Origin: Candidatus Binatia bacterium
GTDB taxonomy: Bacteria > Desulfobacterota > Binatia > UBA9968 > CAXXLF01
Reading direction: 5' to 3'
DNA length: 64,000 nt
NCBI GenBank assembly: GCA_963664015.2
Contig: CAXXLF010000001.1
Coordinates: 224,001 to 288,000 of the forward strand
Below the pieces are notes generated by a model. The model had not been told where the DNA came from. It worked only from the letters and a program-made list of their open reading frames with translations, and searched no databases. Position 1 is the first letter of the stretch. Every line of letters starts with the position of its first letter. Shown here piece after piece: positions 195 through 64,000 of the stretch. The translations under genes and the position numbers were made by a program.

Positions 195-1688
195 TCAAGG
201 ACTTTTAAGGGCAAGGAAGAGCGTGGTGTCGCCACGCCGGAGCCAAAAAAGGACACCTTTTCCCTTTTTCATTCTGCCTATCGATTTCTCGTAATCGGCC
301 AGGTTACGGACCGCCCGACGATCGATCTCCAATATGACATCACGGCGGCGGAGTCCTGCCCCATTGGCCGGGCTCCCGGGTTCAACCATGGTGATAACCA
401 CTCCCTCGGCACGATCCAGTCCCAGGCTTTCTGCGATCTGTGGGGTAACTCTCTGAACAGTCAAGCCCAGCTCCCCTTTTTCCGTGACCGATGCAAAGAC
501 CTCTTTTTCCTTCAACTCCCCAATGCTCACCTTGAGCTTGACCTCTTCCCCCTCGCGTAGGACTTTTACCGTTACCTCTTTTCCAACGGGAGCCCGAGCA
601 ACGATGATCGGCAGGTCATTGGATTCGCGAACCTCTTGGCCATCGAACTCAATGATAACATCGCCCACCTTCACTCCAGCCAACTCTGCGGGTCCCGCTT
701 TGAACACATCTGCGACCAGTGCGCCCCTACCCTTTCCCATACCAAGGGATTCGGCAATCGCAGGAGTTACGGCTTGGATAACGACCCCCAACCATCCCCG
801 GGTCACCTTCCCCTTGGATTTCAATTGGGGCAATAGTTCCTTAACCAGATTGATAGGGATGGCAAACCCTATCCCAATATTTCCTCCCCCCCGGCTAAAA
901 ATGGCCGTATTGAGCCCGACTACCTCGCCCTTAAGGTTAATCAGGGGACCGCCCGAGTTGCCTGGATTGATCGAGGCGTCGGTCTGTATAAAATTGTCGT
1001 AAGGGCCGGCACCGATGTTTCGTCCCTTCGCACTGACAATTCCGGCTGTCACACTGTGCTCCAGCCCAAAAGGATTACCTATAGCTAAAACCCACTCGCC
1101 AACTTCTAGGGCCGTCGAGTCCCCCATAAGAACAATCGGAAGTTCCCTTTTGGCATCGACCTTGATAACCGCAATGTCTGTTTTCGCATCCCGCCCGACG
1201 ATCTTGGCCTCCAATTCGACCTCATCGGATAATCTGACAATAATTTTATCAGCATCCTCAACCACATGGTTATTGGTAAGAATGTACCCTTCGTGATCCA
1301 CAATGAATCCGGAACCCAGGCTCTTTTGACGGAACTGTCCCTCCGGGAATTGGTCCCCGAAAAACCGCCTCCAGAACTCACTGCGGGGATCTTCCTCCCC
1401 GAAGGGATTAGGACCGGGCTGGCCGCCACCTCCACCAACCTGAGTGGTCGATATATTAACAACCGCGGGGGTGAGCTGTTTCGACAGATTAACGAAATCA
1501 GGCAGGCCCTGCGGATTCTTGGACCCAGCCTGCACAACCGGTACCCCGGTGGACAGGGAGACAAGCGGTCCCCACCCGGGCCGCCAGTCTTGCGCGAACA
1601 TCATTATTCCTGTCAACAAGAAACCGCCAGTTAAGATAATGATGCGCTGGATATGGCGTGATCCGCCTCGCAGGGTCATATATTTCAT
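195..1688 (-). CDS. HtrA/DegP (Do) family periplasmic serine endopeptidase, two PDZ domains
   Basis: TNNHV, DIAVIK and TDASINPGNSGGPL catalytic-triad motifs, N-terminal hydrophobic segment, two PDZ-like repeats. Confidence 0.95.
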   Translation of the reverse strand: MKYMTLRGGSRHIQRIIILTGGFLLTGIMMFAQDWRPGWGPLVSLSTGVPVVQAGSKNPQGLPDFVNLSKQLTPAVVNISTTQVGGGGGQPGPNPFGEEDPRSEFWRRFFGDQFPEGQFRQKSLGSGFIVDHEGYILTNNHVVEDADKIIVRLSDEVELEAKIVGRDAKTDIAVIKVDAKRELPIVLMGDSTALEVGEWVLAIGNPFGLEHSVTAGIVSAKGRNIGAGPYDNFIQTDASINPGNSGGPLINLKGEVVGLNTAIFSRGGGNIGIGFAIPINLVKELLPQLKSKGKVTRGWLGVVIQAVTPAIAESLGMGKGRGALVADVFKAGPAELAGVKVGDVIIEFDGQEVRESNDLPIIVARAPVGKEVTVKVLREGEEVKLKVSIGELKEKEVFASVTEKGELGLTVQRVTPQIAESLGLDRAEGVVITMVEPGSPANGAGLRRRDVILEIDRRAVRNLADYEKSIGRMKKGKGVLFWLRRGDTTLFLALKSP

Positions 1689-1697
1689 GAAGCTCTC

Positions 1698-2135
1698 CTA
1701 TTTATTCCGTACGGCTTCAACGTATTTCATACGTAATTCGAAAAGAATCTCTTCCATGAGTTTGTCCTCTTCGGGATCTAGGTTTCCCCGCGTCTTATCA
1801 CGCAAGAGGTTGATAATATCTATGGTTTGTTTGGCTATCTTAACTTCCTTTTCAATTTGGCCAGTCAATGGATTGGGGATTTCTCCCAATTGCATCAAGA
1901 CCTGGGTACTCAAACTAATAATGAAAGTTGGGAAATTGATGGCTGGCGGCACCTCGTCGGACTCGGGCGCTCTGTAGGCCTCCGGTTGCTGTGCCGTTGC
2001 CTGATCGGCGCCCGGTGGGGGAGATTGCCCCTCCGACGGCTCCGAGGGCTCCGAGGGCTCACCGGTATCCCCAGAAAATCGGCGCCGATCTTGAACCTTG
2101 AAACCCTTACCCTCTTGTTCCATATCGTCCGCCAT
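1698..2135 (-). CDS. DUF1844 domain protein
   Basis: F..FIISL...LMQLG..PNP.TG...AKQTID....L..KTRGNL..EE pattern. Confidence 0.8.
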   Translation of the reverse strand: MADDMEQEGKGFKVQDRRRFSGDTGEPSEPSEPSEGQSPPPGADQATAQQPEAYRAPESDEVPPAINFPTFIISLSTQVLMQLGEIPNPLTGQIEKEVKIAKQTIDIINLLRDKTRGNLDPEEDKLMEEILFELRMKYVEAVRNK

Positions 2136-2264
2136 AAAGCCTCCGTATGAAAGACCGCAAAAATCTTCCGAACGTTAAGTAAGTCTAGGGATTTGACGCT
2201 TACGCACGTAGGTGAGATTGAGTCGCCAAGTGTGCTGAATCGATTGCACCTCCCGCAATTAACT

Positions 2265-3332
2265 TTAAGACCACCTTTTTTCCTTGTCAAGGATACTGTG
2301 CTGATCAACGACCTGTTCCAACAACCCAACGACCTGGTCGGGGACCAGTTCCTGCAGGCAAATACGGCCCTGACAAATCCGCGCTCGGGAAAGACCGCAC
2401 GGAGAACAACCTACCCCCCTCCTCAAAATCGAGACATTTATTCCCCGCGGCGCCCATTGAACAGGATCCGTCGGTCCGAAGATAGCTACCGTTGAAACCC
2501 CCACCGCGGCCGCTAGATGAGTCGCGCCGCTATCATTTCCCAAGTAAAGATCGCAGCGGCTCTGCAAGACGGCCAGCTGTCCAAGACTCATCTCTCGGAC
2601 ACAGATCGCTTCTTTCCAGATAGGGTCGCTCCCCATTTTTTCATCTTCCACCGGACCACGCAGAACCAGCGTCTCCCCACGGGTTGTGGACCGCCACCAC
2701 TGTGACACGTTGCCATAAAAAAACGGGGGCCAGTTTTTAGCCTGTGAGCCACTGCCCGGGGCAAGGGCGAGCACCCTCTTCCCGGCAAGTCCGTTTTCTT
2801 GCCAATACCGATCACACCACTTTTGCGCATCCCCCTGTAGGAAAATGTTGGGCAATGGCGCAAGCCTATCCTCATTGAGCAGGCTCGACAAGTAATAGTC
2901 GGCCATGTGAACCCGGGTTCCCGGCGGCCGAAACGGCAGTATGTGAAGATCACCCAAATAATGAGTTCTTAGGCTATTTACAAAATCCGATTGATGAGCT
3001 CCCATCCACGAGTAAATGCAATCAAAGGAACAAAGATATTCCCGCATTGCTGGCCCCATGGCCTGCGGCCCTGCAAACAAACAGCCGATGGGGTGGCAGT
3101 CCAGAGAACGAACGGTCATGGCGGGTTCCCTGGGAAACAATAACTCAGCGTATTCGGCCCGCGCCGCCAACTCAAAATGTACCTGGGGTTCCCTCTCTAC
3201 AATTGTTCTTAGAGTGGGGAGAAAGCAGAGGAAATCACCCAGGGCTCCGGGGAAAACAATAAGCCCCTTCTTCTCAACCTGGGAGTCTGACCGGAGTGGT
3301 GAGGCTATGAGATCCTTCAATTGACTTTCCAC
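2265..3332 (-). CDS. Glycosyltransferase family 9 (heptosyltransferase-like)
   Basis: GALGD, PGSGS..KNWP, GNDSGATHLAAA.G..TVAIFGPT motifs. Confidence 0.9.
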   Translation of the reverse strand: MESQLKDLIASPLRSDSQVEKKGLIVFPGALGDFLCFLPTLRTIVEREPQVHFELAARAEYAELLFPREPAMTVRSLDCHPIGCLFAGPQAMGPAMREYLCSFDCIYSWMGAHQSDFVNSLRTHYLGDLHILPFRPPGTRVHMADYYLSSLLNEDRLAPLPNIFLQGDAQKWCDRYWQENGLAGKRVLALAPGSGSQAKNWPPFFYGNVSQWWRSTTRGETLVLRGPVEDEKMGSDPIWKEAICVREMSLGQLAVLQSRCDLYLGNDSGATHLAAAVGVSTVAIFGPTDPVQWAPRGINVSILRRGVGCSPCGLSRARICQGRICLQELVPDQVVGLLEQVVDQHSILDKEKRWS

Positions 3333-3403
3333 AATGGAATATATAGCATAGCGTTGATTTTAGATAGCTTAACCTACCCCATAAATTTCATGCAAGACGA
3401 CCC

Positions 3404-4351
3404 ATGGCAGATTTAAACGGCGCCCGCTCCATACTGGATCTTATTGGATCAACGCCGGTAGTCAAATTGAGACACATTCCGGGCAAGCAAGACGCCGAGG
3501 TGTGGGGCAAACTGGAATCCCGAAATCCCGGTGGATCGGTCAAGGATCGAATATGCCTCAGCATGATTGAGGTTGCAGAGCACCAAGGGGACCTAAAGCC
3601 TGGTGGAACCATTGTAGAACCTACAAGTGGAAACACCGGCATTGGCCTTGCCCTGGTAACCGCGGTCAAGGGATATAGACTGATACTAACCATGCCGGAC
3701 ACTATGAGTGAGGAGCGCCGTAGCCTCCTCACTGCCTACGGGGCCAAGTTGATTCTAACACCGGACACCAAAGGGATGGGGGGAGCCATCCAAAAGGCGG
3801 AGCAACTCGTCCTCGAGCACCCCGATTACTTCATGCCGCAGCAATTTAATAACCCGGCAAACCCGGAGGTCCACCGCCGGACCACCGCCATTGAACTTCT
3901 CAGCCAGTTCAAGCGAATCGACGCGTTCATTTCTGCCGTAGGAACAGGAGGCACCATTACCGGGGTTGGAGAAGTTCTTAAGGACCGAATGCCGGGAATT
4001 AAAATCTATGCGGTAGAACCCGCAGCATCACCGGTTCTTTCCGGAGGGGAGGCAGGCTTCCATGGCATTCAAGGTATCGGGGCTGGATTCGTACCAAAAG
4101 TCCTAAATATCCGGATATATGACGAGGTGGTTACAGTATCCGACGAGGATGCAGCCCTTTGCGCCCGCCGTCTCACCCTGGAAGAAGGGATCTTTGTTGG
4201 AATTTCCTCTGGCGCTGCATGCCATGCTGCCCTACAGGTGGCCAAAACACTGGGACAAGGTGCCACTGTCGTCACTATATTTTGCGACACCGGGGAACGG
4301 TATCTCAGCACCAAGACCTTCGGAAGCCCACCGGTAACAGGTTCCAACTAA
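3404..4351 (+). CDS. cysK: Cysteine synthase A
   Basis: [14 protein letters not shown] (PLP lysine), [26 protein letters not shown]. Confidence 0.95.
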
Positions 4352-55762: not shown

Positions 55763-55837
55763 TCTTATTTACGGCTTCTTTCCTGAAGACTCGCTTCTCA
55801 ACTCATGGACCATCCAACCATGGGTCAACTATGACTC

Positions 55838-55882
55838 TGGTGCGCCCGGAGGGATTCGAACCCCCAGCCTACAGATCCGTAG
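55838..55882 (-). other. Displaced 3' half of tRNA-Arg(ACG); att junction of an integrated element
   Basis: Minus strand CTACGGATCTGTAGGCTGGGGGTTCGAATCCCTCCGGGCGCACCA covers anticodon loop to CCA; no D arm or 5' acceptor strand upstream. Confidence 0.85.
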
Positions 55883-55978
55883 ATTGCTGGAACCAGTAAT
55901 GGGATGCACTGAGGGGGAATAGAAGTCTTGATTTGCAATGACTCGTTCCCTGTCAGTCCATGTGCTTTTATCACAGTC

Positions 55979-56162
55979 TGGTAGCAAAGTGGTAGCAAGA
56001 ATATTTCACAAACGACTTCCCCAAAATTCTGAAACGAATACCGGGGAGCCGTGTAAATGGACGAATGGGTGACTCGATGGCCTACAGATACCTTCTTTGT
56101 GGATGCTTAAAATCACTTGCAAACTCAGTGGGTTATTCTCACCTGCTACCAGTCTGCTACCA
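55979..56162. repeat. Four TGGTAGCA octamers in two inverted tandem pairs (candidate integrase arm sites)
   Basis: TGGTAGCA at 55979 and 55990; TGCTACCA at 56144 and 56155; 11-bp period in both pairs. Confidence 0.65.
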
Positions 56163-56610
56163 TCATGTAGGGAAGGCGCATGAGCAATAATCCCAAGCGT
56201 GGCAGAAGCGTTCCCCCAGGAAACAGAACCGCTCTCCAGCATGGGCTTCATACCTATAGAGTGAGACTGAACGGCGATAGGTTGGACCGAAGATCTGGGC
56301 TGTCACGGTCTGGATGAAGTCGGATGGCCACAGCATCCACCACAACGGACAAAGTACCCCAGGCGGGGGAGGGTCGATGTCGAGTGAGGTGAATGAGAGA
56401 TCCTGGATGAGTCCCGCCAAGAAAATTTTACTATATTTTCACACGAAGCGATGGGCGTCCCTGGAGTTGAAGCGGGCCTTGTCACACGATATCCCCGACT
56501 TTGCCTTACGGTCCTTCTAAGCCCCCTCAGAAGCCAACTCATTAAATGTCACTTTTGGATAGGCTCAGACCCGCTCTGGGCTTGGGTTTACTCGGTGTTA
56601 GACAGCCAGG

Positions 56611-56690
56611 ACGCAATTAATGAGCTAATTAAATGCGTCTTGCCGGTCATTGGGTAAGGAAACAGCGGCCCAATGTGGACCGCCGCCTTC
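56611..56690. repeat. Palindromic site A (11-6-11) plus a right flank shared with site C
   Basis: ACGCAATTAAT-GAGCTA-ATTAAATGCGT followed by CGGTCATTGGG...GCGGCCC...GGACCGCCGCCTTC. Confidence 0.7.
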
Positions 56691-56718
56691 GTTAGCTGCG
56701 CGCAAATTGGAGGTCTAT

Positions 56719-58380
56719 CTATTTCTTGTGGATTACAATGCTGCCGCCGCCCAATCCAGTCGCATCATCCCCGGTGTCAGGAGCCTCCAGCTTGTTGTCA
56801 TAGACTATTATGTCAGTTGCTGTGTTCTAAATCTTGATACGAAATCTATCAACTCCACCACCGCCAGCGATGGCTCCGTCAATTGCCGTTAGCATAAAAC
56901 CGTAGTTATCACCTCCATTGATGGTACCGACACCCTTGAATTGAGCACGAGCACCGGCCACGACCAACCACTCGTAGGTGTTCGAGTGGAAGTTCAGGTC
57001 TGCAACTTTGAACTGAAACTCGGTCACGCCAGTCGGGGTGTGGGCGCCCTTCTTGTACTTTGATACAAACCCGAAGTTCGCCTTGCCTGTGAGCGATGGA
57101 TTAGGGGTGTAGCCTCCCCAGGGAGAGTTGATCCAACCACCGCCGGTGATAAAACCAGCGATCGGATCGTAAACGGCGAGCAATACACACGTTTCATTGC
57201 CAGTGTTACCTGATGCATCAGTTCCAGATACACAGATTGTGTGAACGCCAGTGGATGTAAACCCGGATAGAATTGATGTCACTGCCTCGACAACGTCATC
57301 GAAGCTACCATCCCGCGCGGTCATTGGAACTGAAGCTGCACCGTCAATTATGTAGCTGGCAGCGGCGATGGTCGAGCCTCCCGTGCCCCAATCGTCGACA
57401 TCGGCGATCAGTCTGACATCGGTATTCACAACAGCTGGGTTTGCGGTAGCCAAGACGGCAGCGGTCTCCGGACCTTCATCGTCTGCCACCAACGAGAAGA
57501 CATATGCTGCTCCGGTTATCCGGGTGGGTGAACTAGCGTGGTCATGGGTGTGCGCACCAATTAGGGCCGTATTGCCGCTCATCGCTACGCCGATTCCGAA
57601 GCGGCTACCCTCGTGCGAATCGCTTGCGGTGAATTTGGCTTCCCTGGCCCAAGTACTGCCGCTAGGGACAAAGGAATAGACAGCGCCGGTATAGTTGTCT
57701 TCTCCTTCGCCGGCAGCCCCAATCAAAGCCCGGTCGCCATATAGCGCGAGCCCAAAGAAACTCAACGATCCGAACTGAGCTGGATCGCCTAAGAACTTCT
57801 GTGGTTCCACCCATTCCGTGCCATCGAACTCGAACACGTAGGCAGAGCCACTGGAATCGCCATTGCCGTCGCCGTTATCGTTTATGCTACCAATGATCGC
57901 CGTGCCGCCGTTGAGGCCGACACACTCGCCGAGCCTGTCGTTGGCTGCGGCGTCACTAGGAGTGAGCTTTTGCACTTCACTCCACGTCGCCCCGTCGAAA
58001 GTGAATACGTAGGCGGCTTCACCGCCGAATCCGGTACCGATGATCGCTGTGTTGCCATCGAGAGCTACGAAGAATCCAAACCGATCGAACGCAGCACCGT
58101 CGCTGGCAGTGAGTTTCTGCACTTGAGTCCAATTCGTTCCATCGAACGTAAACACGTAAGCGGAGCCGGTTGCCTCTCCGTTGTCAGTATCTCCACTAGC
58201 GCCAATCACAACCCCCTCGCCGTCGAGCGCGACTGAACGACCAAAAACATCAAAGGTCTCACCATCGTTGCCCAACATTTCTGCCAGCTCCGTTGGGGGC
58301 TCGGCCTTCGCAGTATTCACATAGAAACCGTTCAGGACAAGCATGATTGCGGCTATCGGGATAAGAGCCTTGATAGTCAT
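56719..58380 (-). pseudogene. Secreted FG-GAP repeat protein with Ig-like and C-terminal beta domains; premature TAG 36 codons before the natural end
   Basis: Repeated D.FG.SVALDG...IGA / GSAYVF; the frame continues RFRIKI*NTATDIIVYDN...LGGGSIVIHKK* past the TAG at 56827. Confidence 0.75.
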
Positions 58381-58480
58381 GGACACCTCCTTGAGGAACA
58401 TCTCTGTCACTCTGCTGGGCCTCACATCGAGCAAGCTGGTTGTTTAGAGCAAAGGGGGAGGTCTTATTGGCGGATAGCGC

Positions 58481-58598
58481 CCCAATATCACCGTGAGAAA
58501 TAGTGTCAAGGGGCTAAAGTTTCGACACGACGCAATTAAACGACGCTTTAATTGATTCCTACCTCAGATTGACATAACAGCCCGTTATCGAGTATTGT
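58481..58598. repeat. Palindromic site B (58530-58557) flanked by divergent sigma70-like promoters
   Basis: ACGCAATTAAA-CGACGC-TTTAATTGATT; TTGACA on the minus strand at 58504-58509 and TTGACA-18-TATTGT on the plus strand at 58569-58598. Confidence 0.7.
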
Positions 58599-59282
58599 TC
58601 CCAAGGCTCGAAAAGCGAGTTTCTACCAGAGACACGGGAGCCTGGCTGCTTTGCTACGATGGTCGTCGCTGGCTATCTTCGAAAGCAGGCACCACGGAGC
58701 CGCGTGCGGCAATTTTTGATTTTCGCGCGGCCTCATTCGCAGGAGATGGCATTTGGAGGCCCCCACGCGCCCCGGCTCACAGTCCGATCGCTCGGGTATG
58801 CTTGCTCCCTGTTGAAAGCCGCCCTCATCCGATATAATCGGGGTAGCTTCTCGAACGAAGACCAACAACGAAGCCCCAGACAATACGATCCGGGCGCGTT
58901 TTTCACGTTCGACCCGATGGTGACGGGGGCAGCATCCGTCGTCTCTGGAGCTGTCGCGCTGCTTGGGAAGTGCTGGAGAACTCCAGCCAAATGTCAAGGC
59001 CGTGTTTCCGCGCCAGTTCGATATTCAAACGGCCTTCGAGTTTGCTTGTATCGACACGGCGGTCATAGACGTGCGCGTCCCGAGCCCCAGCAGTACGGAG
59101 GCCGGCCGTTGGCGAGTTGGACACGGAAACCAACGCGGCTTTTGGAAACCATCCAAGCAAGCCGCGTCAGGGATTGGAGTGGGACAAGCCAATGTGGTTC
59201 TTTCGTGTCAATGGGGCAAAATGGTGGAGGCCCGAAGTAGACCTCGCATTGTTTCCGTTCACTCAACCGAAAGCGAGAGGTG

Positions 59283-60215
59283 ATGACCATATTTGACAGT
59301 AAGATCGATCGGGTATCGACGGCGGTATTACTTGCTGCTGGCACTGGAAGCCGACTTCAGCCGATAACGGATAACGCACCGAAGTGCCTGACCGAAATCA
59401 ACGGGGTGACCATACTTGAACGACAGCTCCATGGCTTGCGCCAGCAAGGCTTCAGGCGGCTGGTCGTAGTTTTAGGCTACATGGGTGATTGTATCCGTGA
59501 ATTCTTGGTAGATCATGCCGCCGGTCTGACGGTTGACTACGTTACCAATCCGCGGTATCGGACGACCAATAACCTTTACTCGCTGTGGCTCGCTCGAAAG
59601 GAAGTTCGTGAGCCTTTTCTGCTGGTTGAGTGTGATCTTGTTTTCGACGCGTCCTTGCTGGGAGACATGCTTCATCCCAACAAGATCGCCGTCTCGCAGA
59701 GGCGGGCCTGGATGAATGGCACGACGGTCACGGTGGACCCTTCCCAGCGGGTTACGACTGTGCAGGTCGGTGGCAGTGCGATTCCCAACAACTTCAGCTA
59801 CAAGACGGTTAATATTTGCAGCCTCTCGATGGCATCGTGGCAGCGTGTCCACGAACGATTGACCCGGCGCGTTTTAGCAGGCAGAGTGAACGAGTATTAT
59901 GAGGCCGTGTTCGCGGACATGGTCGCGGACGGCAGCCTTTCTTTTGATGCTGTTTTTTTTGATCCCGACCGTTGGCACGAGGTAGACACCCTCGGGGATC
60001 TGCACGAATGCGAACGGCTGTTCTCGATGCATCCTGATCAAATACCACATCGGGTGAGCATAGCCACCTCTGGAACCCGAACGTTCCGCCGAATTCCCCA
60101 AAGTCGGACAAGCCCGTTCGCCGCGGTTGGTGCAGTCCCGAATTCACAACGGGAGAAGTTAGACCCAGGAGACCAATCCGCCATTGCTAAAAAACATGAC
60201 CTATCTCGATCGTGA
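59283..60215 (+). CDS. LicC-like phosphocholine/phosphoethanolamine cytidylyltransferase
   Basis: LAAGTGSRL.P.T...PKCL, N..Y.TTNNLYSLWLA, ECDLVF, YYE.VF, W.EVD...DL. Confidence 0.85.
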   Translation: MTIFDSKIDRVSTAVLLAAGTGSRLQPITDNAPKCLTEINGVTILERQLHGLRQQGFRRLVVVLGYMGDCIREFLVDHAAGLTVDYVTNPRYRTTNNLYSLWLARKEVREPFLLVECDLVFDASLLGDMLHPNKIAVSQRRAWMNGTTVTVDPSQRVTTVQVGGSAIPNNFSYKTVNICSLSMASWQRVHERLTRRVLAGRVNEYYEAVFADMVADGSLSFDAVFFDPDRWHEVDTLGDLHECERLFSMHPDQIPHRVSIATSGTRTFRRIPQSRTSPFAAVGAVPNSQREKLDPGDQSAIAKKHDLSRS

Positions 60216-61305
60216 ATCCCAGGAGCAAAAATACGAATTCATCACCGGCCAGCATGGCGGTTACTGGCGTCATGATTTCGTCGACCATGCCTATCTCTAC
60301 AATCTCTATTTCCCTCCGGATGCACTGCTGGCTTATTTTGGAAACCACCTGCGAGAACTGGTTCTAAATTATCCTGTTGCCCAGGACGTTCTTGCCGGTC
60401 TGGTCGGCACGTTGATCGGACAACCATCTGAACGGATTGTCGTTGGCAACGGTGCCTCGGAACTAATCAAGGTCATCTCGTGCAATCTCTCAGGTCAATT
60501 GATCGTCCCGGTACCCTCGTTTAACGAATACGTCAACGCAGCTCCAACGGATCGGGCTATCGAGTTTCCCCTTGGGCCGCCCAAATTTGAGTTGGAAGTC
60601 GACCAGTTTGCCGCCCAGGCCGCTCGCTGCAAGGCCGAGGTTGCCATCGTGGTAACGCCGAACAACCCGACATCGCTTGTCGTGCCAAGGACCGACCTAC
60701 TCCGCCTGGCAAAGAGCCTTGCCGGCCATGAATGCACACTGATCGTTGACGAATCCTTCATTGATTTTGCCCCCCATCGCGAACAGTTGACGCTGGAGCG
60801 AGACATCGAGCACCATCCTAACCTAGCTGTCATCAAGAGCATGAGCAAAGCCTACGGCATCTGCGGACTACGCATCGGCTATTTGCTCACCGCCAACAGC
60901 GAACTTGCCGAGACGATTCGCGGCCGGATTCCGATCTGGAACATCAACGGCTTTGCCGAGGCGTTTCTTCGTCACGTGCCGAAGTACCGCCTGGAGTTCA
61001 GTGAAAGCTGCCGGCAGGTTGCGGCCGATCGGGACGCTCTTTATCGGCAGTTGTGTACGGTTTCCGGGATGACCGCCTACCGGCCCACCGCAAACTTTAT
61101 TTTCTGTCGTCTTCCCAACGGGGCTGCCAGCAGTCCCGAGGTGACCCGCCGTCTGTTCGTCGAGCACAACATCTACGTAAAACACTGCCAGGGCAAAACG
61201 CTCCCCGACGGCGACCGCTATCTTCGAATTGCCAGCCGCACTCAGCCTGAGAATGTGAAACTGGTCGAAGCGTTGAAAGATATCATCGGCCCGAAAGATC
61301 ACTGA
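60196..61305 (+). CDS. Class I/II PLP enzyme, HisC/CobD-like (possible amino-acid-phosphate decarboxylase)
   Basis: GNGASELI, P.F.EY, PNNPT, VDESFIDF, SMSKAYGICGLRIGY, RIASR...EN..L. Confidence 0.85.
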   Translation: MTYLDRESQEQKYEFITGQHGGYWRHDFVDHAYLYNLYFPPDALLAYFGNHLRELVLNYPVAQDVLAGLVGTLIGQPSERIVVGNGASELIKVISCNLSGQLIVPVPSFNEYVNAAPTDRAIEFPLGPPKFELEVDQFAAQAARCKAEVAIVVTPNNPTSLVVPRTDLLRLAKSLAGHECTLIVDESFIDFAPHREQLTLERDIEHHPNLAVIKSMSKAYGICGLRIGYLLTANSELAETIRGRIPIWNINGFAEAFLRHVPKYRLEFSESCRQVAADRDALYRQLCTVSGMTAYRPTANFIFCRLPNGAASSPEVTRRLFVEHNIYVKHCQGKTLPDGDRYLRIASRTQPENVKLVEALKDIIGPKDH

Positions 61306-61958
61306 TGCAAACCTCCAACCCGCCGCAACCGATGAGACCGACCATCATTAGCTTTGCCCTGGATCTTCCCAATATCTGTTCTCTGGCGGGGCTTTTCTGC
61401 GCGCTGCTCGGCATTTATTACGCGATCCGCGGAGTTTTCCCTGCAGCTATGATCGGCATTCTCTGGGCCGTGGTCTTTGACTGGTTCGACGGAGTGATTG
61501 CCCGCCGGCTTTCCGGTCGAACCGCGTCGCAACGGGCCGTTGGAGCGCAACTGGATTCCCTGATTGACCTGGTGAGTTTTTCTGTTTGTCCAGCCATCGT
61601 GTTACTTAGCTACAGCCAATACAGTCTCTTGTTTATTCCCGGAGCGTTTGCGATTCTTTCGACAGGGGTGCTGCGACTGAGTTACTTCAACGTATTCGGC
61701 CTTGTGGACGGATCGACCTATATGGGGCTCGCACTCGATAATAACGTTCTCGTTCTTGCGTTTGTCTTCCTGTTCGATGGATTGGTCCTCCGAGACACTT
61801 TTGCAGTCATCCTTCACCTAACGCTACTGGCCCTAGCAGCCATGAACGTGGCGCCCGTTCGAACGCCGAAGTTGACAGGTGGATGGTATTACGGGCTGGC
61901 GGGTTATGCCTTGGTCATGACAAGTGTTTTCGGTTGGAGATGGGCTCAGTTGCCCTAG
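61305..61958 (+). CDS. CDP-alcohol phosphatidyltransferase family protein
   Basis: DWFDGVIARR...GAQLDSLID signature; multiple transmembrane helices. Confidence 0.9.
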   Translation: MQTSNPPQPMRPTIISFALDLPNICSLAGLFCALLGIYYAIRGVFPAAMIGILWAVVFDWFDGVIARRLSGRTASQRAVGAQLDSLIDLVSFSVCPAIVLLSYSQYSLLFIPGAFAILSTGVLRLSYFNVFGLVDGSTYMGLALDNNVLVLAFVFLFDGLVLRDTFAVILHLTLLALAAMNVAPVRTPKLTGGWYYGLAGYALVMTSVFGWRWAQLP

Positions 61959-62019
61959 GAATCAAAGAAACACGTCTTGCAGGTCACACGATTCCTAATC
62001 GGATAGCGTGCAAGAATTC

Positions 62020-62868
62020 TTACTCCACAAGGCGTAGCTTGAAGAAGTGATTCTGTAATCTAGGCCAAGCGATGTTTAGTTGAGAGAGCACTCGCGGTAG
62101 AGCCCAGAAGCTAATCGGCGTGGTCCCTCTGAGCGCCCACCACATCAAGGAACCAAGCGTGGGAGAATCCTTGGGCAAGAAAGGTAGCCACTTGCGACGC
62201 AGATCAACCAACTCCTCTGCAGTCACCATGCTGGTGTAACCGTAGTTCCGCCGGACTTCCACGCGAAAGGGTCCCGCGTCCTCAAACAGTCGATGATACA
62301 GACTTACGCTTCGGTAGACTGCCTGATACTCGCCTCGTGCCAAGGATACCCCCTGCTGCACAGTCGACTCTCGGAGGATGATCGAACCCTCTTTGCTAAG
62401 GCGGTGTTTCAAAGAGTGGAGCAGCGCCAGGACGTCAGCGTTCTTCAGATACATACACAGGCCACCCAGGAAGATCATGTCAAATGATCCTTCCGGAAGG
62501 CTTTTCCGACCGTCGCCTTCGAAAATCTCAACATTGGATAGGCGAGCCACTCTTTCCCTAGCAGCCTTCACCATCAAGGGACTACGGTCGATCCCAATGA
62601 CAGCTTTGTAGCGCTTGGCGAAGATCTCGGTCCAGGCCCCCGCCCCACAGCCAACGTCAAGCACTCGCCCTGAGGCACACACAACGTCGAGCCAATCTCT
62701 AACAATGCGTATCTCTTTGCGTAGTCGATATCGGGCCGCACTGGCTGGCAGATTGTGCTCATGGGCCATCATGCTGACAGTGCTTGCTGTGCCTCCCCCT
62801 ACACCATTGAAATAACGTTTGACAGTTGCATCATTGATCTGTTGTTCGGTGGAGGAGTGGTCATTCAT
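62020..62868 (-). CDS. Class I SAM-dependent methyltransferase resembling a phosphoethanolamine N-methyltransferase domain
   Basis: VLDVGCGAG motif I; FDMIF...LCMYL...V..LL...GSIILRES...YRS...Y..LF. Confidence 0.8.
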   Translation of the reverse strand: MNDHSSTEQQINDATVKRYFNGVGGGTASTVSMMAHEHNLPASAARYRLRKEIRIVRDWLDVVCASGRVLDVGCGAGAWTEIFAKRYKAVIGIDRSPLMVKAARERVARLSNVEIFEGDGRKSLPEGSFDMIFLGGLCMYLKNADVLALLHSLKHRLSKEGSIILRESTVQQGVSLARGEYQAVYRSVSLYHRLFEDAGPFRVEVRRNYGYTSMVTAEELVDLRRKWLPFLPKDSPTLGSLMWWALRGTTPISFWALPRVLSQLNIAWPRLQNHFFKLRLVE

Positions 62869-63105
62869 CGGTATTACCTTTGAAAAAGTCAACGATCGGT
62901 CTTAGCATTGAGGCATGGCCACCGAGAACCCAAGAATTCTGCTAACGGCCACTTTGATACATAAGTAAGCCAGCTTCACCCTGGCGACACAAATCACAGA
63001 GCGACTGGCTCTAAAATGCTTATGTTCCCCCTCCTTGGCCTTACGTCACGCTAGAAGCCATTCAACGATTGACGAGGCTCACGCTTATGGTCTGAGACTA
63101 AGAGA

Positions 63106-63223
63106 CCCATATCACAGAGGAGATAATTGTCAATCATCCTAGAACGCTATTAAACGACGCTTTAATTGAGTCCTACGGCCATTGGGAACGACAACGGCGG
63201 CCCTTTTGGGGACCGCCGCCTTC
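63106..63223. repeat. Palindromic site C (63144-63171) with a B-like left flank and an A-like right flank
   Basis: ACGCTATTAAA-CGACGC-TTTAATTGAGT; left CCCATATCAC...TGTCAA; right CGGCCATTGGG...GCGGCCC...GGACCGCCGCCTTC. Confidence 0.7.
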
Positions 63224-63330: not shown

Positions 63331-63813
63331 CTACTGCTCGAAGCAATAGAGTAGTTTCATGTTGTTGCAGGAGGGGGAGATCAGGGGGGCCTCCTCCCTC
63401 CAGGTAGAGGTGTTAGAGTTCGTTTGACCCACGCTTGCATTATCGCCGGAACCGTTGAGCGTCCAGTTGCTACAGTTGCCGTTGAAGCTATCCCCGTTTT
63501 GGTCGGTGCTTGTCCATGCATCTGTCACGGGGGCAGCGCCCTGCACCTCCGTGAGATCAATGGAGATCGTAAGGACCCCGTCCGTGAGGTCGGCCCAATT
63601 TGCTGCGACCTAAGCGCCGTCTGTTCGTACATATGGTACGACCGACTGAATAAATCGGGTGCTGGGCGACATGATGGAATCCTATAACCAGGCCTAGTAG
63701 GTTCCAAACAATCCCGCTTCGTGGGAACGCTGGTTACAGATCAAATCTGCGCCCTGGAGTCCTCCCAAAATGCCGTCGTGTACGGAGCTGGTGACGAAGA
63801 CCGTCTTCGTATT
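63331..63813 (-). pseudogene. DUF1554-like (endostatin/C-type-lectin-like) domain, 5'-truncated, three in-frame TAG
   Basis: KTVFVTS...GGLQGADLIC...GTY*AWL*DS...PYVRTDGA*VAANW.DL.DG...C.NWT...LLYCFEQ. Confidence 0.75.
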
Positions 63814-63819
63814 CCGTGA

Positions 63820-64000
63820 ACCAAGGAAGCGGGTCTCAGCCGGTCCACCGTCAAAAACCTGATCGCACCACTCAGGGCAATGTTCAATCCGGCAGTAAAG
63901 CTCGGCAACCACCTCCCAGAGCAGGACACCACGAAGATCGAGCCAAACCCTCTTAATGAGGAAGAAGTCCGTCATCTGCTGGCCACGGTCCGGGAAAGGC
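63820..64000 (+). pseudogene. Tyrosine recombinase/integrase fragment, lacking its N-terminus and running off the window
   Basis: Hand translation KEAGLSRSTVKNLIAPLRAMFNPAVKLG...PNPLNEEEVRHLLATVRER resembles the core-binding/catalytic domain junction of phage integrases. Confidence 0.6.

Follow-up and report, generated by a model that had tools for sequence, protein, structure and literature searches.

The 64-kb stretch of Binatia DNA analysed here (the window) carries three short palindromes, A, B and C, that lie between groups of genes near its downstream end. An initial annotation proposed that these are core sites at which a tyrosine recombinase adds or removes the intervening genes, and the locus raises the question of whether A, B and C bound mobile gene cassettes or serve some other function. 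To our knowledge, bacteria have hardly any general system for gene-cassette capture other than integrons, the textbook example. We consider it probable, at roughly 0.65, that the three sites belong to a lineage-wide, integron-like cassette platform that is present in one Binatia order and is served by an Xer-like recombinase.

Three related sites in the window

The positions and letters first reported for A, B and C proved exact when the window sequence was re-read, and the sites have the 11-bp arms and 6-bp centre that had been taken as tyrosine recombinase-type architecture. The palindromes, originally given as 28 bp, are present, but their arms are longer (approximately 15-16 nt). As proposed, B and C are direct repeats with a common spacer, and A has a spacer of its own.

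Core 56611-56638, extended 56606-56643, plus strand: site A, A-type, with arms inverted around the spacer GAGCTA (sequence, pattern scan and base-frequency table of 33 A-type sites)
58530-58557, plus strand: site B, B-type, with spacer CGACGC (sequence, pattern scan)
63144-63171, plus strand: site C, B-type, with spacer CGACGC and the orientation of B (sequence, pattern scan)

A degenerate pattern allowing up to three mismatches gave six matches in the 64-kb window, all located at A, B and C, which are the three sites read on both strands. Only 0.04 matches were expected, and six or more were reached in none of 100 shuffles. The sequences flanking and separating the sites hold the following features.

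56514-56605, plus strand: non-coding, conserved accessory element left of site A, in which the arm motif occurs a third time (56537-56548)
56660-56690, unstranded: GC-rich hairpin module (sequence), which recurs right of many sites in this genome (G000) and in a relative from another genus (G004)
56827-58434, minus strand: cassette 1, gene for an FG-GAP repeat protein (Pfam FG-GAP_2, E=1.1e-61)
58481-58509, minus strand: promoter-like block of the FG-GAP gene, TTGACA and then an extended -10-like TGnTATTGG, adjoining the left arm of site B
58569-58598, plus strand: promoter-like block leading into the lipid module (TTGACA, 18 nt, TATTGT)
59280-61958, plus strand: cassette 2, co-directional genes for an NTP transferase, a class I/II aminotransferase and a CDP-alcohol phosphatidyltransferase (Pfam)
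62020-62892, minus strand: cassette 2, opposite-strand gene for a SAM methyltransferase (Pfam)
63027-63143, minus strand: repeated promoter-like module that adjoins site C at its left arm (sequence repeats)
63195-63221, unstranded: second copy of the GC-hairpin module (sequence)
63331-63546, minus strand: 71-aa ORF (ORF list)

Genes in this list are plain longest-ORF calls, and promoters and terminators are predicted by consensus alone. The FG-GAP_2 gene and the genes of the lipid module were recovered as initially described, but the 'DUF1554 gene' right of C was not: only the 71-aa ORF is found there, which has no Pfam match at E<=0.01 and is probably a gene remnant. The hairpin at 56660-56690 appears terminator-like for the minus-strand FG-GAP gene, for which the block at 58481-58509, a module also found left of many B-type sites, may act as the promoter. 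A promoter function is likewise predicted for the block at 58569-58598, which the lipid cassette of G004 also retains. The module at 63027-63143 recurs at C1:830757-830903 (81.6% identity over 147 nt) and at C2:2236574-2236703 (77%), and has many copies in G004. The accessory element has 10 matches in this genome; when 25 copies taken from G000 and G004 were aligned, no consensus RNA fold emerged, and the element matches no Rfam family.

The common flanks noted in the initial annotation are present as well, with a TGTCAA block (the reverse complement of TTGACA) left of both B and C and, right of both A and C, a CGGYCATTGGG motif with a GC hairpin after it. However, it is unlikely that the common right flank arose by exchange between A and C, because A is of a separate class from B and C and the two classes have unlike spacers. 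The right flank is the recurrent GC-hairpin module and the left flank the recurrent promoter-like module, and both adjoin many sites elsewhere too.

A site family with two classes in one lineage

Scanning the genome and its relatives for the motif, as the initial annotation had advised, revealed that the site family is far wider than the window. This genome has approximately 25 copies of the ~36-bp site, and two relatives have more than 100 each. By family, sites of this type (f1-type) are present in all four relatives within the family of G000 (f1; 4 to 116 per genome), in two of 18 genomes of the sister family (f2; one each) and in none of 18 genomes of f3, while a reversed-pattern control over the same genomes gave zero matches everywhere. 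The sites exceed chance numbers and are restricted to one lineage.

An asymmetric 6-bp spacer lies at the centre of each site, flanked by inverted arms of approximately 11-15 bp. Base-frequency tables compiled from 85 B-type and 33 A-type sites show spacer positions conserved at 96-100%, no less than the arms, and near identity between the two arms of a given site. B-type sites (spacer CGACGC) separate cassettes. A-type sites (spacer GAGCTA in f1) open arrays and there carry a conserved accessory element of approximately 90-135 nt that holds the third arm copy; they are also found 16 nt behind a B site, forming a doublet. A second version of the sites (f2-type), with arms TGAAYTGAA and a spacer identical to that of f1, occurs in 51 of the 123 genomes of the order, with up to 51 copies per genome. 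The f2-type sites also include a second spacer class, GGAGAA, and the starts of sites from the two classes repeatedly lie 36-38 nt from one another, which matches the 38-nt offset of the f1 doublets. These sites constitute a large family of the recombination type that is apparently undescribed so far.

Arrays of uniformly oriented sites

In G004, 95 sites are distributed over 13 loci, and one of them lies inside an ORF of at least 100 aa. The intervals between sites (69 in this genome) have a median length of 1317 nt and hold one (46 intervals), two (13), three (8) or four (2) ORFs. Adjacent sites have the same orientation in 82 pairs and opposite orientations in none in G004; the corresponding counts are 64 and 1 in metagenome contigs and 9 and 1 in G000, which sum to 155 and 2, and among f2-type sites 17 and 0. 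The ORFs of the G004 arrays, in contrast, face both ways, with 37 co-oriented with the sites and 67 opposed. Cassettes mostly have their own promoter-like and hairpin modules, with one to four genes per interval on either strand.

Many contigs end at sites, where short-read assemblies break, and thus arrays and the recombinase may be under-represented in binned genomes.

Homology ends at the sites

The initial annotation had asked whether the sites coincide with breakpoints in gene content, and homology blocks within and between genomes do end at sites. Among 260 HSP ends, 33 are located within 15 nt of a site centre, compared with 0.7% for random positions. A GFA cassette present in two G004 arrays is 97% identical from site to site, and a 730-nt cassette common to G004 and G000 is 93% identical, again from site to site. 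The GFA pair is the clearest case, since identity stops directly after the spacer, such that the left arm and spacer stay with the DNA upstream and the right arm with that downstream. More generally, right-arm variants follow the right flank: right-arm identity is 1.00 for pairs with only the right flank in common (7 pairs), but 0.42 and 0.39 for pairs with only the left flank in common (36 pairs), against backgrounds of 0.51 and 0.47.

The lipid cassette of the window offers an example between genera. Positions 58529-62892 are 94.2% identical to G004 over 4364 nt (BLAST), and this homology starts exactly at site B (58529) and stops at the start codon of the methyltransferase gene (62892). Given that the XerC/XerD and Na/Pi cotransporter proteins of G000 and G004 are only 76-79% identical, the similarity of the cassette argues for horizontal transfer. 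Arrays, orientation, breakpoints and this inter-genus cassette agree with the initial proposal that the sites are cassette boundaries, but no recombination product was seen. Neither an empty site nor a circle junction specific to the locus appeared in contigs of four public runs, and no insertion or deletion of a single cassette was found among the pooled contigs.

It is unlikely, in our judgement, that the palindromes are instead binding sites for a regulator or insulator protein between transcription units, shuffled by homologous recombination of intergenic modules of ~100-220 nt (promoter, palindrome, hairpin). Most sites do have TTGACA boxes 13-26 nt away, on a single side or on both, and composite promoter-site-hairpin modules recur that provide enough homology for RecA; homologous recombination or gene conversion of such repeats would likewise end homology at sites. 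Furthermore, four of the five f1 genomes yielded no resident recombinase. However, a non-palindromic spacer at 96-100% identity has no reason in an operator, and 155 of 157 adjacent pairs are alike while the genes around them face both ways. Some sites also sit between convergent units, with no promoter on either side, and recombinase genes of the sister family adjoin sites.

The array of the window rides on a tRNA-Arg island

The window array sits on an 8.7-kb island at a tRNA-Arg gene, and two features in the window mark this element.

55839-55883, unstranded: far island border, where 45 bp of the tRNA-Arg(acg) 3' end recur as a perfect direct repeat (BLAST)
63880-64000, plus strand: start of the frameshifted tyrosine integrase of the island, in two overlapping frames, which runs on to C1:288544

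The 45 nt at C1:279839-279883 are 100% identical to C1:288606-288650 (BLAST), and the intact tRNA-Arg(acg) gene at C1:288606-288682 (ARAGORN; equivalent to window positions 64606-64682) is located just beyond the window end. The C-terminal piece of the integrase matches PF00589 with 52 bits. Thus, the island has the tRNA 3'-end repeat at its far border and the integrase beside the tRNA that are typical of tRNA-integrated genomic islands, which explain only the vehicle of the window array. The array would be cargo of an element that integrated at tRNA-Arg through a separate, now broken integrase, and the 'island integrase' initially suggested for testing on the sites is this frameshifted protein of a classical tRNA-Arg island. 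Integrases near sites in G000 come from different families, and neither a tRNA nor an integrase lies near the G004 arrays.

Comparison with known systems

Rather less probable than an operator function is that the sites are dif-like and are worked by the host XerC/XerD proteins, in the manner of pdif modules or Xer-exploiting mobile elements. The pdif modules of Acinetobacter plasmids have an 11-6-11 core, site-bounded gene modules, inverted site orientation and a recombinase that acts in trans; the core, the bounded modules and the supply in trans are likenesses to the Binatia sites that extend to Xer-dependent elements generally. Apart from XerC and XerD, no tyrosine recombinase was found in every one of the five f1 genomes. 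In addition, the accessory element beside A-type sites is reminiscent of those that accompany plasmid Xer sites. The cer/psi sites of plasmids and the TnpI site of Tn4430, which resolve dimers or cointegrates outside cassette arrays, similarly place a core beside a one-sided accessory region with further copies of the binding motif. However, the order has its own canonical dif, GATAA-N6-TTATGTMAAC, with the G000 copy at C1:143278. All 21 genomes match this pattern loosely, and 19 of them have one listed copy that is clearly dif-like, with 0-1 mismatch and an AT-rich spacer such as GATATA or TGTATA. Direct comparison finds the cassette arms matching the dif arms of the order at only 4-5 of 11 positions, in accord with the early remark that they depart from the E. 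coli XerC/D consensus, and the near identity of the two arms of a site suggests binding by one protein rather than an XerC/XerD pair. Unlike pdif sites, those of Binatia do not resemble the host dif, are in direct rather than alternating orientation, have nearly symmetric arms and form chromosomal arrays of tens to hundreds of sites.

Selfish extragenic palindromes of the REP or MITE kind, spread by a transposase, would also be short, intergenic and present in tens to more than 100 copies per genome, yet we regard this origin as highly improbable. REP/BIME elements are extragenic palindromes in alternating orientation with a REP-associated transposase, whereas the Binatia sites are uniform in orientation within arrays, are spaced at one unit per gene block and fall into two classes in a set order, the A type leading. 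Moreover, homology blocks end inside the site, not around an inserted element. Least probable of all, and close to dismissal, is a classical integron with the palindromes as atypical attC sites, since the single orientation of the arrays and a truncated integron-integrase gene in G000 (C2:382569-383204; fragments also in G004 and G001) are countered by full-length IntI (above the TIGR02249 cut-off) occurring in eight of 41 genomes, all f2 with zero or one f1-type site, by f1 genomes holding IntI fragments only, far from arrays, and by short near-perfect palindromes that by eye lack integron core motifs at their ends and bound cassettes with promoter-like blocks facing both ways.

The resemblance to integrons is instead one of organization. 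Both systems have arrays of mostly single-gene cassettes, split by recombination-type sites in one orientation, with accessory-enzyme cargo and the capacity to ride mobile elements, and the A type, an array-opening first site with extra repeats like binding sites, is analogous to attI. Integron attC sites are imperfect palindromes of 57-141 bp that form folded hairpins with conserved 7-base cores at both ends, and the cassettes are mostly promoterless and co-oriented with the array. The Binatia sites, in contrast, are near-perfect palindromes of ~36 bp with a fixed spacer, their cassettes have promoter-like and hairpin modules of their own and lie in either orientation, and the system has two spacer classes and B-A doublets. 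The arrays have no IntI gene at them, nor do IntI and the sites co-occur; more broadly, the sites track neither integron integrases nor serine recombinases. No PF00589 match was present among the scanned ORFs of the 13 G004 array loci. A further difference is that the candidate recombinase gene of the Binatia system sits inside arrays.

A candidate recombinase and a proposed mechanism

This gene belongs to a family of divergent Xer-like recombinases, XerX, which we consider the best candidate for the enzyme. In f2 genomes, all six XerX homologues have a site spacer 6 nt past the stop codon, which suggests that the recombinase gene is itself part of the arrays. Two f1-type XerX copies instead have a site about 100-125 nt upstream, and these two sites point opposite ways. 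XerX is found in only five of the 123 genomes of the order and in none of 301 genomes sampled from the class. It was not found in G000, G001, G002 or G004, though G004 has 106 well-conserved sites, and no recombinase lies within or beside the 13 G004 arrays. As XerX was not found in the genome under study, the window array may be frozen, or may depend on an enzyme supplied in trans.

Under the cassette platform that we favour, a simple Xer-like tyrosine recombinase would bind both arms of a site, and strand exchange would fall within the spacer. A cassette would leave as a circle with one site and could enter any site of matching spacer, and such cycles of excision and same-spacer insertion would preserve orientation and build arrays.

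A more detailed version, which we put forward tentatively and at slightly less than even odds, is that Binatia of this order possess an unrecognized platform unlike integrons, in which an Xer-like enzyme, whose own gene is a site-ended cassette, shifts promoter-gene-terminator units between short double-stranded sites. The two spacer classes would represent two levels of mobility, one for single cassettes and one for whole array segments that dock at the accessory-bearing A sites, and the arms would have co-diverged between families while spacer and doublet geometry were kept.

Implications

If the enzyme is confirmed, a new recombinase paired with its ~36-bp site, in versions with two mutually exclusive spacers, would become available for genome engineering. 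If the platform is real, it would be a second, independently built system, and cassette capture would have evolved more than once, in this instance among poorly known, uncultured bacteria with hundreds of units per genome, through sites that are short and simple and cassettes that drive their own expression. Such a platform would also help to explain how these bacteria build up accessory enzyme sets of such size, which include methyltransferases, oxygenases and hydrolases as well as solute-binding proteins.

Three palindromic sites in the window

The initial annotation proposed that three palindromes divide the accessory genes of an island into recombining modules. The sites, together with a non-coding element that adjoins the first of them, are as follows.

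56611-56638, site A, spacer GAGCTA (A-type)
58530-58557, site B, spacer CGACGC (B-type)
63144-63171, site C, spacer CGACGC (B-type), in the same orientation as site B
56514-56605, accessory element of site A (other copies extend up to about 135 nt)

The window sequence bears out the coordinates and sequences proposed for site A and for sites B and C, and the flanks said to be common to the sites are real. The palindromes are present where they had been placed, but their arms, given as 11 nt, are longer (~15-16 nt each). A degenerate pattern allowing up to three mismatches finds the three sites on both strands and nothing else in the window (six matches, versus 0.04 expected), and none of 100 shuffled sequences reached six. 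Most of the gene content also stands, including an FG-GAP gene, genes for an NTP transferase, an aminotransferase and a CDP-alcohol phosphatidyltransferase, and an opposite-strand methyltransferase gene. However, the gene labelled ‘DUF1554’ is only a 71-amino acid ORF without a Pfam match. We judge, with a probability of roughly 0.65, that these palindromes are the recombination sites of a cassette system.

Distribution of the sites

The source genome (G000; 3.5 Mb in two contigs) carries 23 sites at up to three arm mismatches and one spacer mismatch, plus a few more degenerate ones, and the reversed-pattern control gave none. When 41 related genomes were scanned with the core pattern at no more than one mismatch, the four other genomes of the same family, f1, all had sites (G001, about 40; G002, 4; G003, 116; G004, 106), as did two of the 18 from family f2 (one site each), but none of the 18 from family f3; all controls gave zero. 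Exact matches were sought in 185,579 species genomes, where 112 stretches were found, and among the matches listed, 74 of 80 loci belong to three Binatia-type assemblies; the other six are on 2-12 kb contigs in bins with other labels. At least 137 stretches with a site were present in metagenome contigs, which are mostly short and often terminate at a site. Viral contigs gave no exact site match.

Organization of the arrays

Arrays are best seen in G004, a member of f1 from another genus, where 95 sites are spread across 13 large loci and only one lies inside an ORF of at least 100 amino acids. The 69 intervals between sites have a median length of 1317 nt (range 495-4035) and hold one ORF in 46 cases, two in 13, three in eight and four in two; relative to the site, 37 ORFs are co-oriented and 67 opposed. 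Adjacent sites no more than 8 kb apart point the same way in all 82 pairs from G004, in 64 of 65 pairs from metagenome contigs and in nine of 10 from G000. The sole opposed neighbours in G000 (C1:658372-662391) are two B-type sites that face each other across 4 kb with near-identical promoter-like flanks, and this stretch resembles an invertible or inverted segment.

Read in the direction of the sites, arrays run A, B, B and onward, with the conserved accessory element, which carries a third copy of the arm motif, to the left of the first A-type site. Rfam gave no match in window positions 40000-64000 at E<=1, the accessory element included, and RNAalifold found no consensus structure on either strand among 25 copies of the element. 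Arrays also contain internal B-A doublets, in which an A-type site follows a B-type site by 16 nt. The spacer positions of B-type sites are 96-100% conserved (n=85 sites), which is at least equal to the arms. Sites are recurrently accompanied, on one or both sides, by a TTGACA-type promoter-like block that points away from the site, and by a GC hairpin on a side that faces the end of a gene; functions for both modules are inferred from their consensus.

Cassette genes code for varied accessory enzymes and binding proteins, including ABC substrate-binding proteins, GFA and cyclase-like proteins, methyltransferases, hydrolases and oxygenases. The G004 arrays contain a few insertion sequences, and no recombinase was found among the array ORFs scanned (150 of 183 ORFs of at least 100 amino acids, plus 21 more). 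An 8-kb duplication in G004 (L149:1-8002 and L153:2479-10480, on contigs C6 and C5; 99.99% identical) spans three cassette sites. Its end is 220 nt beyond a site, and an IS4-like element begins at that point in one copy. Because one copy begins at a contig end, an assembly artefact is possible.

Homology breakpoints at the sites

The initial annotation called for a test of whether the sites coincide with gene-content breakpoints. When 535 kb of G004 and G000 array DNA were compared all against all by BLAST, with self-hits and HSPs shorter than 250 nt excluded, 33 of 260 HSP ends fell within 15 nt of a site centre (0.7% for random positions) and 48 of 260 within 30 nt (1.3% for random positions). 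The same comparison revealed entire cassettes, from site to site, that are common to different arrays. For example, a GFA cassette in two G004 arrays is 97% identical over 636 nt although its neighbours differ, a 730-nt cassette is 93% identical between G004 and G000, and several cyclase-like cassettes share 74-93% identity.

Such pairs also locate the breakpoints within the sites. At the downstream site of the GFA pair, identity spans the left arm and spacer and breaks off where the right arm begins, whereas at the upstream site the right arms agree and the left arms differ. Two positions of the right arm are variable across B-type sites (locus L153 was omitted as a duplicate of L149). These are identical in seven of seven pairs that have only the right flank in common, compared with random agreement (0.42 and 0.39) in 36 pairs that have only the left flank in common and a background identity of 0.51 and 0.47. 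Left arms vary too little to map the left boundary of the exchange. The breakpoint pattern is the one that would be expected from strand exchange in or at the spacer. Homology ending at sites would also result from recombination or gene conversion between repeated modules.

Cassettes in transit were also sought. A B/C circle junction had been suggested as a check, and the contigs of the public runs lend no support to excision. Contigs from runs X19 and X20 show the same linear order as the window, and the depth at sites exceeded 200 in run X2. Where joints in run contigs lead backward, for example from 63168 to 56605, they have a short side or contain additional letters, and they match B-A doublets of other arrays rather than a circle of the window locus. 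Among pooled contigs, no cassette-sized insertion or deletion was evident at >=95% or >=85% identity; the pool held only an IS insertion polymorphism and one further flank mosaic at a site.

The lipid cassette and its tRNA island

The four-gene lipid module between sites B and C (window 58529-62892) has a counterpart of 4364 nt on G004 contig C4, with 94.2% identity. Given that the XerC, XerD and Na/Pi cotransporter proteins are 76-79% identical between the two genomes, the module must have been exchanged between genera. The homology begins one base before site B, across which the neighbours differ (FG-GAP in G000 and a cyclase-like gene in G004), and its other end is the methyltransferase start codon at 62892. 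Beyond this point, G004 carries another methyltransferase gene within a longer operon, and a seawater contig has the same continuation; G000 has a repeated promoter-like module and site C in place of this upstream region. In G004, the lipid module is located just beyond the last site of its array. These comparisons suggest that a chromosomal block adjoining an array may turn into a cassette.

The array is flanked by two identical 45-bp copies of the tRNA-Arg(acg) 3′ end and therefore sits in an 8.7-kb tRNA island.

Window 55839-55883, repeat copy
C1:288606-288650, repeat copy within the tRNA gene

The frameshifted integrase of this island adjoins tRNA-Arg. Contig depth at 55784-56067 is very high in all four public runs because the tRNA-derived repeat also matches contigs from elsewhere. 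The same arrangement is seen in another G000 array (C1:655-666 kb), which terminates with an integrase fragment and tRNA-Ser, and a third (C2:328-333 kb) has a broken integrase after the last B site, with tRNA-Arg(cct) on the accessory side instead. The integrases of the three islands are mutually unrelated, and G004 arrays have neither tRNA nor integrase in their vicinity. To the left of the window island, the PhoU and Na/Pi-cotransporter pair is kept in G001-G004, where no sites and no further shared neighbours accompany it, so no empty site can be defined.

Separately, a 1558-nt stretch with a tRNA-Ala gene and an integrase (G000:C1:1223387-1224944 and G004:C5:1038625-1040182, where the G004 contig terminates) is 99.4% identical. 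With core proteins about 77% identical, this points to a mobile element recently shared by the two genera.

Sister sites in family f2

A half-site and spacer of a sister, f2-type site occur at no more than one mismatch in 51 of 123 genomes of the order (50 of 90 in f2, 0 of 28 in f3 and one of four in f1), or in 48 of 120 when three genomes flagged as unpublished with one match each (G323, G338 and G356) are left out. They reach 51 per genome in single-orientation arrays, with the reversed control near zero. Across seven f2 loci, all 17 pairs of neighbouring sites are co-oriented, and a second class with the same arms and the spacer GGAGAA is as numerous as that with CGACGC (16 copies each). 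GGAGAA sites recur 36-38 nt from a CGACGC site, matching the 38-nt offset of the f1 B-A doublet. Thus, the two families have different arms but a common spacer, and both have two classes of site and doublets of conserved geometry. We regard this conservation as the strongest indication that the sites are read by a protein machine.

Candidate recombinases

On metagenome contig L184, a B-type site is present about 100 nt upstream of an Xer-like gene, and a 95% identical gene in G003 is about 125 nt from an inverted A-type site, on a contig that ends at the stop codon. The product, which we call XerX, is a protein of 315 amino acids in which, by reading of its sequence, the residues for tyrosine-recombinase catalysis are conserved. 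Its scores fall short of the curated cut-offs for XerC (210 versus 335 bits), XerD (207 versus 330) and XerA (199 versus 220), and the family comprises 321 database proteins at E<=1e-30, mostly on 1-5 kb contigs. Among the 123 genomes of the order, XerX occurs in five, namely G003 and four f2 genomes. In the latter, a site follows the gene in six of six copies, with GCGTCG starting 6 nt past the stop codon, followed by the arm TTCAGTTCAAT; further full sites (ATTGAA-GCGTCG-TTCAGTTCAAT) are found 1-4.7 kb away in the same orientation. Examples of the gene are L308:1501-2445, of the G003 type, and L335:10406-11326, from f2. Searches of G000, G001, G002 and G004, and of a sample of 301 genomes of the class, did not find XerX. 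Its role as the enzyme of the cassette system is a tentative proposal, to which we give slightly less than even odds.

Other enzymes fared less well. The 13 tyrosine-recombinase matches of G004 comprise XerC, XerD, island integrases adjoining tRNA or tmRNA genes, integron-integrase fragments and a few others, and none is near an array or site. An integrase family associated with tRNA-Ala is present in the four site-rich f1 genomes and absent from G002, but it also occurs in five f2 or f3 genomes without f1-type sites. The site-proximal integrases of G000 belong to unrelated families beside tRNA genes, and a recombinase at C1:1086446 is sporadic and frameshifted in G000. In G345, Xer-like genes (278-299 amino acids) adjoin some f2-type sites, but they are paired with IS91-type transposases and so are probably parts of insertion sequences; they were set aside on this ground. 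The elements concerned, each with a Y2 transposase and the Xer-like recombinase, are about 130-380 nt from f2-type sites, which they may target.

L342:2630-4876, IS91-type element
L342:10526-12767, IS91-type element
L338:2903-5324, IS91-type element

Serine recombinases had no match in G004.

Comparison with integrons and dif modules

Integrons appear to work alike as cassette platforms, yet the present system falls outside them by each of three membership criteria tested. Full-length integron integrases occur in eight of 41 genomes, all in f2 and with no or one f1-type site, and 19.5 kb beside the intact IntI of G039 hold no repeat related to the sites. The f1 genomes carry only fragments, such as the following.

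G000:C2:382569-383204, truncated integron-integrase gene (positions 1-212 of 315; 260 bits, just below the cut-off)

Xer/dif modules have the same core architecture as the cassette sites, but the latter differ in module orientation and in their lack of likeness to dif. The suggestion that the sites might match the chromosomal dif was not borne out, as the cassette arms do not resemble the dif of this order. Its canonical form is GATAA-N6-TTATGTMAAC, which as a loose pattern occurs in 21 of 21 genomes; among the matches listed, 19 of the 21 have one clearly dif-like copy (0-1 mismatch, with an AT-rich spacer such as GATATA or TGTATA). The proteobacterial dif motif has no G000 match within eight mismatches.

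G000:C1:143278-143298, candidate chromosomal dif, GATAAGAAATATTATGTAAAC, conserved across the order

GC-skew turning points in G000 suggest a terminus close to where the two contigs begin. Multiple copies of a dif-like site, GATAAGGGGNNTTATGTCAAC, with a spacer unlike that of true dif, occur in G004 (C5:579481, C5:584329, C7:612519 and C7:616442) and on G003 and G001 contigs, and may be markers of a Xer-dependent element.

A second, unrelated family of 11-6-11 palindromes, TTGTTTGTCGG-GAGACG-ACGACAAACAA and TGCCCAATCGT-CGTCTC-CCGATTGGGCA, is present in pairs about 42-58 nt apart across the origin-proximal part of G000, with none in the window.

G000:C2:1677927-1678012, pair
G000:C2:2028153/2028211, pair
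G000:C2:2145187/2145243, pair
G000:C2:1904231/1904273, pair
G000:C2:1121276/1121334, pair
G000:C1:744998, single copy
G000:C2:214990, single copy

A proposed cassette platform

In the mechanism that we propose, a tyrosine recombinase of a simple kind, probably a member of the XerX family, would bind both near-identical arms and exchange strands in the asymmetric spacer, and a cassette would leave as a circle bearing one site. The circle could then enter any site of the same spacer class, by which orientation would be kept. A-type sites with their accessory element may serve as docking points, and B-A doublets as joints of larger mobile segments. This proposal draws on what is observed directly, namely the anatomy of sites and arrays, their uniform orientation, breakpoints at the spacer, cassette exchange between genera and f2 recombinase genes abutting sites. 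A search of the openly available literature found no paper describing these sites. There is a substantial chance that this system forms a distinct class among site-specific cassette platforms.
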